Source: Chloroflexota bacterium | GTDB lineage: Bacteria > Chloroflexota > UBA5177 | DNA length: 64,000 bases | Direction of reading: 5' to 3' | NCBI GenBank assembly: GCA_051002135.1 | Contig: JBPCMQ010000039.1 | Span: 25,510-89,509, forward strand | Made by a program: the position numbers and the translations under genes | Part shown: piece after piece, positions 35,650-37,786 of the stretch | How positions within the stretch are numbered: position 1 is the first letter of the stretch | How the letters are laid out: every line of letters begins with the position of its first letter | The notes under the pieces: generated by a model | Database searches by the model: none | The model's input: only the letters and a program-made list of their open reading frames with translations | Told to the model about the DNA's origin: nothing

Positions 35650-36693
35650 CTACGGTGCGAGAGCCAGGGAGCAGCCGTCCTCGGACCCATCTATCCGGCC
35701 TACCGGACAATACAGGCTATCGTTCGAGAGAGCACCGCGGAAGGCCTGACAGTTTTTTGGTTCCAGGGCAACAAGTAGACCTCCGGAGGTCTGAGGATCG
35801 GACAAAAGGTCGGCGGTCACACCGTCGATGTCTTCACCGGCTTGTACGTACCGCTCGACATATGCTTGATTCGTCCTGGTTCCACCGGGAACATGTCCGG
35901 TCGCGGCGTAATCGCGAGCACCGGGCAGCAGAGGAATCGAGGAGATGGAAATGTGAGCGCTCACACCCGAGGCCATGCAGAGGTCCGCCAGGTGACCGAG
36001 CAGGCCGAAGCCCGTGATATCGGTAGCGGCGTGAGCATCGGCCTCGGTCATTGCCGTCGACGCCGAGCGATTCAACGTAGTCATCCAGCGAACCGCTTGT
36101 TCGACGTCCGCCGGCCGTGCCGCTCCTGCCTTGAGCGCCGTCGCGATCACACCCGTCCCCAGCGGCTTGGTCAGTACGAGGACATCGCCGGGCTGGGCCC
36201 CACGGGCCGTCATCATGCGCCGCGGATCGACGGTTCCTGTCACGGCGAGGCCGTATTTTGGCTCCGTGTCGTCGACCGTGTGGCCTCCGACGATCGTCAC
36301 GCCCGCCTCGCGCGCTTTATCGGCTCCCCCGCGCAAAATATCCGCCAGCACGTCCGCACCCAGCGAGGCCATGGGGAAGGCGGCAATATTGAGAGCCGTC
36401 AGGGGCCGCGCCCCCATCGCGAACACGTCACTGAGCGAGTTGGCGGCCGCGATCTGTCCGAACGTGTAGGGATCGTCGACGATGGGCGTGAAAAAGTCGA
36501 CGGTCTGGACCAGGGCAAGGTCGTCGCGCAAGCGGTAGACAGCCGCGTCGTCCGCCGGATTGTCGCCTATTAGGAAGTTGGGATCCTCGCTCCGAGGAAG
36601 GTGGCGCAGCACGTGCGCCAGATCAGCATGGCTGACCTTGCCCGCTCAGCCTGCAGAGCGCACGAGCGAGGTCAGGCGCGCATTGGACTGCAT
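35650..36693 (-). CDS. selD: Selenide, water dikinase (selenophosphate synthetase), selenocysteine-containing form. The in-frame TGA at 36646-36648 encodes Sec in the G-U-AGK motif. Start is the ATG at 36693; track ORF 35650..36612 is only the post-TGA part.
   Basis: Upstream in-frame translation gives MQSNARLTSLVRSAG-[TGA]-AGKVSHADLAHV, matching the SelD N-terminus (E. coli ...SHGAGCGCKISPKVL) with TGA at the Cys/Sec17 position. GGAGG Shine-Dalgarno 6 nt before the ATG. The rest of the protein carries the AIRS-domain motifs DDAAVY, GGHT and PQTSGGLL. Confidence 0.85.
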
Positions 36694-36721
36694 GCTTTCC
36701 TCCTTTGACAGAGTTTGAGCA

Positions 36722-37786
36722 TCAATTCACGCCGGCAGCGGAGCTGGCTTCGGCAGAGTGGACGACGGCTTCCACCAGCGTGCGGCCCCCGTCGCGCACC
36801 GGATCGGTGACTGGAAGGCCTGTGACGTCCGCCGCCTCGGCGATCGTACGCCGCGCGTTTCTTTCATCCATGTCGCGCGTGTTCAGACAGATGGCGACCA
36901 CGGGCGCGGGTTTGACCCAGCGAGCGGCCTCCTCGTAGAGCGCGACGAGGCGATCCAGGGGAGGGATGGCAAGCGGGTACTGATCGATGTGCGTTCGGCT
37001 GGGCTGGTGCACGAGAATCATCGCGTCGGGCAACGACCCGTGCAGCAGCGCCAGGGTGACGCCACTGTAACCCGGGTGCAGAAGCGATCCCTGACCCTCG
37101 ACGAAAACCCAGTCCGATCGCTCCGCCGCCTCGATAACCAGCCGCTCGGCCGCGCCCGCCATGAAGTCGCCGATGACGCGGTCGATGGCAATTCCCCCTC
37201 CGTCCAGCATGATACCGGTCTGTCCCGTCGCCACGAACTCGGCTGAGAGCCCGAGGTCCCGCGCCGCCGTGACGACCTCCAGCGCCGCGGTCATCTTCCC
37301 GACCGCGCAGTCGCTACCGACAAAGGTCACAACCCAGCTTCCCGAGCGCCGGGGATGCAGGCCCGCGACGTCGATCTCCGCCGGAGGGCGACGCACGTCG
37401 ACGAGATTAACCCCGTGTTCGTGAGCTGCCCGGGCGAACTCGGGATCGTCGTCCAGCATGTAGTGTAGGCCGCTAATCACATCCAGACCATTCTCGATCG
37501 CGGCAAGAATCTGGCGGCGCCATTCCAGCGGCAGTGCTCCACCGCGGGGTGCGATCCCTACGAGGAGGGCGCTTGGCTCGAGACGGAGCGCCGACTCAAG
37601 TGAATCGACTATCGGCGTCGACCCTCCGACGCCAAGAACCTGACCGGCGGTGAGTCCGGCATGGACCGAGTCGATGACCGCCACGACATCTTCGGGCCGG
37701 TATCGAAGAATGCTCACCGCCGTTTTTCCGTGGTGGAAGTCAAGCATCTTCTGGGCAAGGATCGCCAGACGACGCGGCGCTTCCAC
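36722..37786 (-). CDS. DUF1611-family protein (Rossmann-like N-domain plus P-loop-like C-domain); function unknown
   Basis: Two-domain layout with a glycine-rich VTFVGSDCAVGKMTAALEV segment. Ends 26 nt upstream of the selD start on the same strand. Confidence 0.55.
   Translation of the reverse strand: MEAPRRLAILAQKMLDFHHGKTAVSILRYRPEDVVAVIDSVHAGLTAGQVLGVGGSTPIVDSLESALRLEPSALLVGIAPRGGALPLEWRRQILAAIENGLDVISGLHYMLDDDPEFARAAHEHGVNLVDVRRPPAEIDVAGLHPRRSGSWVVTFVGSDCAVGKMTAALEVVTAARDLGLSAEFVATGQTGIMLDGGGIAIDRVIGDFMAGAAERLVIEAAERSDWVFVEGQGSLLHPGYSGVTLALLHGSLPDAMILVHQPSRTHIDQYPLAIPPLDRLVALYEEAARWVKPAPVVAICLNTRDMDERNARRTIAEAADVTGLPVTDPVRDGGRTLVEAVVHSAEASSAAGVN

Follow-up and report, generated by a model that had tools for sequence, protein, structure and literature searches.

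A DgcN-like DUF1611 gene beside selD in a Chloroflexota lineage: probably a matter of inherited gene order, without a function in selenium metabolism

Here we describe a gene of the DUF1611 (COG3367) family that lies directly upstream of selD, the gene for a selenocysteine (Sec)-containing selenide-water dikinase, in 64,000 nucleotides of DNA from a Chloroflexota bacterium (GCA_051002135.1, contig JBPCMQ010000039.1, positions 25,510 to 89,509; this whole stretch is called the window). The explanation that we favour, and consider probable, is that the gene encodes a DgcN-like acyltransferase which is co-transcribed with selD by inherited, lineage-specific synteny and has no selenium function. 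The protein would N-acylate D-amino acids or small amines related to them by chemistry of the kind inferred from DgcN, which uses acetyl-CoA to acetylate D-glutamate on its amino group, and such a reaction would place it in the salvage of D-amino acids or cell-wall peptides. Its gene would be one member of a long same-strand string that comprises an inositol-lipid operon, DUF1611, selD and lon, and its adjacency to selD would be the gene order of one lineage, with no functional partnership with selenophosphate synthesis. The original prediction, made from the letters of the window alone, had offered either a role in selenium activation or delivery or a coincidental neighbourhood; the second fits best, since 146 of 147 DUF1611 loci sampled outside the window's clade have no selD nearby.

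The protein and its family

Profile searches place the protein in the DUF1611/COG3367 family. Both Pfam domains score above their gathering thresholds and stand in N-to-C order, with DUF1611_N (PF17396) at 103 bits (cut-off 22.6) over residues 42-134 and the C-terminal P-loop domain (PF07755) at 239 bits (cut-off 25) over residues 151-338, matching the Rossmann-like and P-loop-like domains that had been proposed from the translation. The motif GSDCAVGKMT occupies residues 157-166 of the open reading frame (ORF) translation. The sole NCBIfam match is the DgcN equivalog NF041892, which is hit over its full length at 275.3 bits. The protein can be aligned over its full length with three solved structures, 2OBN (E-value 6e-71), 7XRJ (2e-60) and 2G0T (3e-54), of which 2OBN is the closest and covers residues 5-343. 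The fold of the window protein is known from 2OBN and 2G0T, but both were deposited as hypothetical proteins and their entries carry no function. We take 2G0T to come from Thermotoga maritima and 2OBN to come from an organism of the Cyanobacteria.

The remaining structure, 7XRJ, reaches 521 bits against the DgcN model, above its cut-off of 480; according to a 2026 preprint, it is the D-glutamate acetyltransferase of Yu et al. (2023), with its structure solved by experiment. Our account of DgcN is taken from papers citing that work: in these, DgcN is an N-acetyltransferase acting on D-glutamate (Yu et al., 2023, ISME J 17:537; PDB 7XRJ), and dgcN is the key gene which, with that of the racemase DgcA, leads from D-glutamate to N-acetyl-D-glutamate and on to N-acetyl-L-glutamate (PMC12363236, PMC10845958). 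With DgcN characterised, the earlier statement that DUF1611 has no assigned function is outdated. The window protein shares with DgcN the two-domain architecture, the full-length alignment to both structure and model, and the invariant P-loop-like GK, TGQ and EGQG residues; the genomic settings differ, a D-glutamate catabolic cluster around dgcN and a lipid operon plus selD around the window gene.

The residues that are invariant in an alignment of 43 diverse representatives (A1) are all present in the window protein (K21, H108, G163-K164, T187-G188-Q189, D202, E230-G231-Q232, G250 and P253), and it keeps 56 of the 56 positions whose conservation among 158 relatives is at least 97%. Only six positions are specific to its clade (L15, F17, T154, G206, M209 and L236), all of them conservative changes; no cysteine has been gained there, and the cysteine of GSDC is family-wide. 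As judged from these residues, the window protein is an ordinary, predicted catalytically intact member of the DUF1611/DgcN-like family, without sign of a new function.

Gene neighbourhoods outside the window's clade

A search of 1.84 billion representatives returned 2486 relatives of the protein. To these we added a genome scan, driven by a 10-sequence alignment and run on one genome per GTDB species, in which 597 loci were confirmed; the best 80 of them (47-69% identity) were used and come from Chloroflexota, Gemmatimonadota, Armatimonadota, Planctomycetota, Thermoleophilia, Limnocylindrales, Methylomirabilota, Eremiobacterota, Obscuribacterales and others. A metagenome scan contributed 80 further loci. 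The sample outside the window's clade amounts to 147 loci (78 from genomes and 69 from metagenomes) from about 10 phyla, with 1.69 Mb of flanking DNA. Neighbours were read by clustering of all ORFs together with tblastn anchors, for which the window's own proteins served as queries for selD, the lipid genes and lon; greedy longest-ORF calls were swamped by antisense shadow ORFs at high GC content.

Recurrence of the pairing with selD was the check suggested with the original prediction, and outside the clade the pairing hardly recurred. By tblastn, selD was found within 10 kb on either side in none of the 78 genome loci and in a single one of the 69 metagenome loci (L108), hence in 1 of 147 overall, and it was absent from all 102 of the 102 non-clade loci that have at least 1.5 kb on both sides. 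Genes for selD, the lipid operon and lon are confined to loci whose DUF1611 protein is at least 57% identical to that of the window.

Unbiased clustering of the flanking ORFs instead reveals an enolase-superfamily protein with the domains MR_MLE_N and MR_MLE_C as the commonest neighbour of DUF1611. Among NCBIfam models it matches best that of the N-acetyl-D-Glu racemase DgcA, with scores of 273 and 203 bits that fall below the cut-off of 400. Of the 147 loci, 62 have this DgcA-like racemase no more than 400 nt from DUF1611, mostly directly downstream on the same strand, and 13 more have it elsewhere in the flank. Because the racemase recurs in this way, we regard it, and not selD, as the conserved partner of the family. 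The DUF1611 proteins that are paired with it score 257-264 bits on the DgcN model, near the 275 of the window protein. Such pairs are found in Chloroflexota, Planctomycetota, Thermoleophilia and others at 47-56% identity to the window protein, and in a neighbour-joining (NJ) tree the window clade is nested among them; the difference is that the MR_MLE racemase lies within 400 nt in these pairs while the window clade lacks it.

Other contexts were seen in the same sample. Five loci of an unrelated DUF1611 clade (L020, L025, L041, L056 and L076) have a GT4 glycosyltransferase gene immediately upstream of the DUF1611-racemase pair, another and independent GT4 adjacency that may be due to chance given the size of the GT4 family. 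At L171 (77-6047), genes for a D-Ala-D-Ala ligase, two alpha/beta hydrolases and a Mur-ligase-family protein precede DUF1611 on the same strand, and this peptidoglycan-peptide context would fit a role in D-glutamate handling. About 30 DUF1611 genes of Gemmatimonadota (e.g., L031, L066 and L012) have neither the racemase nor selD nearby; judging from the representative sequences of two recurrent ORF clusters, these Gemmatimonadales loci tend to have a putative PspA/IM30-like gene upstream and a putative cysteinyl-tRNA-synthetase-like gene downstream.

Gene order within the Chloroflexota clade

In the window, selD follows the 354-residue DUF1611 gene directly on the same strand, as had been predicted, and ORFs, Pfam and TIGR00476 agree on its identity. 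The DUF1611 gene ends with a TGA at 36722-36724, and the spacer behind it measures 28 nt instead of the 26 nt first given; the ribosome-binding site noted there stands, as a Shine-Dalgarno sequence, AAAGGAGGAAAG, whose end is 5 nt ahead of the selD ATG. On the other side, the lipid operon has internal spacers of 29, 21 and -4 nt by ORF coordinates, and 50 nt separate its CDP-alcohol transferase gene from DUF1611 (Table 1). DUF1611 is therefore bound as closely to the upstream lipid operon as to selD, a point that had been missed. The short spacers at both ends support one polycistronic unit from the lipid genes through selD, and for the same reason the adjacency to selD weighs no more than that to the lipid operon. 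Co-transcription of DUF1611 and selD, as originally proposed, is probable from this spacing and from that of the relatives.

The block ino1/acyltransferase(s)/GT4/CDP-alcohol transferase/DUF1611/selD/lon is intact in every clade locus with enough flank, and its outer flanks vary (dnaK, phosphoenolpyruvate carboxylase or purA). Within the clade, the spacer between the CDP-alcohol transferase gene and DUF1611 ranges from -4 to 60 nt, with a 4-nt overlap in L007, and that between DUF1611 and selD ranges from -1 to 175 nt across 17 relatives. Long spacers before selD, of 108-175 nt, are found in L007, L176 and L005, the last being the longest at 175 nt.

One locus, L174, which was found through relatives of selD, lacks DUF1611. 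There a Sec-encoding selD starts 102 nt behind the CDP-alcohol transferase gene, with lon next in line, and neither DUF1611 nor a remnant of it was detected at this lipid-operon/selD/lon site (gap region 5835-5938). NJ trees of Lon, SelD and GT4 nest L174 in the clade, and the DUF1611-bearing L005 and L007 form outer branches; we read L174 as a clean secondary loss of DUF1611 at this site. Since selD and the lipid operon persist there without it, DUF1611 appears to act as a passenger in the string. In L172, on a 1.8-Mb contig of a metagenome-assembled genome, DUF1611 (4865-5933) is split into two ORFs, and so is lon (7188-9636) in the same contig; as this pattern fits assembly indels better than true pseudogenes, we did not score the split DUF1611 as a pseudogene.

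Weighing of the explanations

Several observations weigh against a DgcN-like enzyme that is next to selD by descent only. On the DgcN equivalog, the 275.3 bits of the window protein are to be read against a cut-off of 480, so that its substrate is putative. The DgcA partner that is known for DgcN was found by tblastn, with a DgcA-like neighbour as query and at both 1e-5 and 1e-8, neither in the 64-kb window nor in the clade loci L001-L010 and L089-L099; Pfam scans of the rest of the window likewise gave no racemase, N-acetyl-glutamate deacetylase or D-amino-acid genes. The window protein would then do without the usual racemase or rely on one whose gene lies in another part of the genome. In L096 and L175, the stop codon of DUF1611 and the start codon of selD overlap as TGATG, which suggests translational coupling of the two genes. 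Finally, a tight Ktedonobacterales group (L108, L169 and L170) has a Sec-encoding selD beside DUF1611 in another arrangement. In L108 (9-3252) and L170 (3798-7106), DUF1611 has selD directly upstream, on the opposite strand, and the racemase gene downstream; in L169 (2865-7120), a HIT-family gene stands between selD and DUF1611; the far side of this selD is occupied by rnc, not lon. An adjacency that survived rearrangement or arose twice would be a weak sign of selection, and the Ktedonobacterales case, the only hint of recurrence, is weak residual evidence for a link to selenium. The NJ tree built from DUF1611 proteins places this group within the sister group to the window clade, and for the two arrangements together a single ancestral juxtaposition with local rearrangement would be as economical as two independent gains.

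The close upstream spacing allows for another function, in which DUF1611 would act as the final enzyme encoded by the inositol-phospholipid/mannoside operon, N-acylating for instance an amino head group or a glycolipid, with selD as the passenger. We consider this unlikely. It would account for the -4 to 60 nt spacing behind the CDP-alcohol transferase gene in all clade members, the overlap in L007 included, and finds some company in the envelope genes (PAP2, monogalactosyldiacylglycerol synthase and mannose-1-P guanylyltransferase) that flank the Ktedonobacterales copies and in the GT4 gene directly upstream of DUF1611 in the unrelated clade of five loci. However, GT4 is a very large family in which chance adjacency is likely, the genes for ino1, the CDP-alcohol transferase and the lipid-A-type acyltransferase occur in 0 of the 147 non-clade loci, L174 has a complete lipid operon without DUF1611, and the chemistry known for the family concerns free D-amino acids.

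Separate transcription of DUF1611 and selD, with a selD promoter inside the 3' end of DUF1611, is improbable to the same degree: the long spacers of L007, L176 and L005 leave room for a promoter in some relatives, but the spacer in the window is filled by the ribosome-binding site, a scan for promoter-like and terminator-like sites found none within its 28 nt, and the stop and start codons overlap in L096 and L175.

We think it very unlikely that the DUF1611 enzyme works with SelD, whether in the supply or processing of the selenium donor, in N-acetylation of seleno-amino acids, in delivery or in detoxification, and that the pairing has been selected. The tight same-strand linkage throughout the window clade, with its TGATG overlaps, would be expected from such a role, and so would the second, divergent arrangement of selD with a DUF1611-racemase pair in Ktedonobacterales, where SelD is also a selenoprotein; selB, moreover, is found in the window at a distance of about 8.5 kb. 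In the DUF1611 tree, however, the two groups with linked selD are neighbours, so that one ancestral accident can explain both, and most other members of the sister group have no selD nearby, including L171, which is 69% identical to L108. Outside the clade the partner is the racemase, and selD is missing from the surroundings of DUF1611 in all of the 147 sampled loci except one. L174 kept its Sec-encoding selD and lost DUF1611, and the clade shows no specific active-site change or added cysteine. The DUF1611 structures 2G0T and 2OBN come from Thermotogae and Cyanobacteria, respectively. SelD is reported to be missing from the former group and the Sec trait from the latter (PMC5322559), which bears indirectly on co-occurrence of DUF1611 with SelD across genomes. 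A role in selenium activation or delivery, as first proposed, is thus not borne out.

Comparison with accepted selenium-linked families points the same way. The argument made for YedE, YedF, LysR_Se, DUF3343 and YqeB/YqeC (PMC5322559, PMC2432076) is of the same type, a gene beside selD, but those families recur near selenium genes in many lineages or are limited to selenium-utilising organisms, whereas DUF1611 adjoins selD in only two related Chloroflexota groups. Neither recurrence of the neighbourhood across independent lineages nor retention together with selD inside the pairing lineage, as L174 illustrates, is thus seen for DUF1611. Among the candidates from selD neighbourhoods published in PMC5322559, DUF1611 is not named, and COG3367 is not mentioned in that paper. 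A narrower version, in which a DgcN-like acyltransferase was recruited to selenium metabolism in two sister Chloroflexota lineages and the adjacency to the gene of a selenoprotein SelD was kept by selection through a local rearrangement, is more doubtful again; the recruited enzyme might serve to detoxify or recycle selenocysteine or another seleno-amino acid by N-acetylating it, or it might assist in making the selenium donor of SelD.

Implications

Inherited gene order being the favoured explanation, the finding matters little as it stands, beyond correcting the label of DUF1611 as a family of unknown function. It also gives an example in which guilt by association, drawn tempting as it was from adjacency to selD, does not hold up when gene neighbourhoods from many lineages are compared. 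Were the selenium reading true, the protein would be a new accessory enzyme in bacterial selenium metabolism, where delivery to SelD is poorly defined. A by-product of the survey is a map of DUF1611 partners in which a DgcA-like racemase appears in many phyla outside Proteobacteria and haloarchaea, the groups in which the DgcN-DgcA pathway was described. Because the racemase pairs with DUF1611 in so many phyla, this map suggests that the route of D-glutamate N-acetylation and racemisation, or variants of it, is widespread.

Features of the locus and the rest of the window

Table 1. Features of the DUF1611-selD locus, in positions of the window.
Feature	Position	Strand	Basis and remarks
DUF1611 / COG3367 gene, DgcN-like	36722..37786	minus	354 aa, GTG start; ORF and Pfam
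DUF1611-selD spacer	36694..36721	minus	28 nt, GGAGG ribosome-binding site; read directly
selD, selenide-water dikinase	35650..36693	minus	347 codons, ATG at 36693, stop at 35650
Candidate SECIS-type hairpin	36620..36638	minus	start 8 nt after the selD UGA; minimum free energy fold
Upstream lipid operon, phosphatidylinositol-mannoside-type gene set	37837..41839	minus	Pfam, ORF coordinates
CDP-alcohol phosphatidyltransferase	37837-38475	minus	Pfam; final gene of the lipid operon
GT4 glycosyltransferase	38478-39677	minus	Pfam
Lipid-A-type acyltransferase	39699-40703	minus	Pfam
Myo-inositol-1-phosphate synthase (ino1)	40733-41839	minus	Pfam
selD-lon spacer with conserved promoter/operator-like block	35442..35649	minus	alignment of seven loci
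lon protease gene	32988..35441	minus	start 208 nt past the selD stop; ORF, Pfam

The assignment of selD is firm at the level of profiles: with U read as C, SelD scores 398 bits on TIGR00476 (cut-off 125), and both AIRS domains, N (PF00586) and C (PF02769), were found. Its in-frame TGA is codon 16 (36646-36648) in the motif SAG-U-AGK; from the ATG the frame reads MQSNARLTSLVRSAG-TGA-AGKVSHADL... and stays open to the stop. The frame 5' of the TGA is conserved among relatives (RLTSLVRCAG-U-ASKV), and L005, a more distant clade member, has cysteine (CAGCAA; selD at 9247-10293) where the other relatives have Sec. On this comparison, we regard the Sec reading of the TGA as sound. The hairpin that starts shortly after the TGA is a candidate selenocysteine insertion sequence (SECIS) by virtue of its conservation and one compensatory change: its stem is retained in relatives, with GUCGGC/GCCGAC versus GUCAGC/GCUGAC in L007. 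The folding z-score of the selD 5' region is -0.48, which is not significant, and an Rfam scan of the window reported two tRNAs only, with no SECIS family and no tRNA-Sec.

Downstream of selD, lon was correctly placed at about 200 nt by the original prediction. It heads a heat-shock string, lon-dnaK-grpE-dnaJ-...-clpB, of which dnaK, grpE, dnaJ and clpB were seen in the window. Alignment of the selD-lon spacers reveals a conserved block with the pattern CTT(G/A/T)ACA, about 31 nt that include GCTAAAAnTTTGTATAC, and then (G/A)T(C/T)AAG, which is also present in L001, L002, L010, L174 and L176. Its outer hexamers are inverted repeats of each other and change together, as CTTGAC/GTCAAG in L176 and CTTAAC/GTTAAG in L174. 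Such conservation suggests a regulated start of lon's own, at which the block may serve as a heat-shock operator. The consensus of the classic HspR operator, the HspR-associated inverted repeat (HAIR), is absent upstream of lon, and a repeat finder reported no inverted repeat there, though the alignment shows the conserved block.

Further genes were noted in the window. On the plus strand, about 8.5 kb from DUF1611-selD, selB (46244-48133) combines an EF-Tu GTPase domain with SelB winged-helix domains 2 and 3; selA and tRNA-Sec were not seen in the 64 kb. The selB gene overlaps a GT4 gene (48130-49257, plus strand) by 4 nt, and a Bac_transf sugar transferase gene (49014-50717, plus strand) comes next. 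A ThiF/MoeB-type adenylyltransferase with an N-terminal rhodanese domain, an enzyme of sulfur-carrier activation, is encoded at 2000-2839 on the minus strand, and the ORF at 44168-44665 on the plus strand is a putative moaC, judging from its position in relatives.

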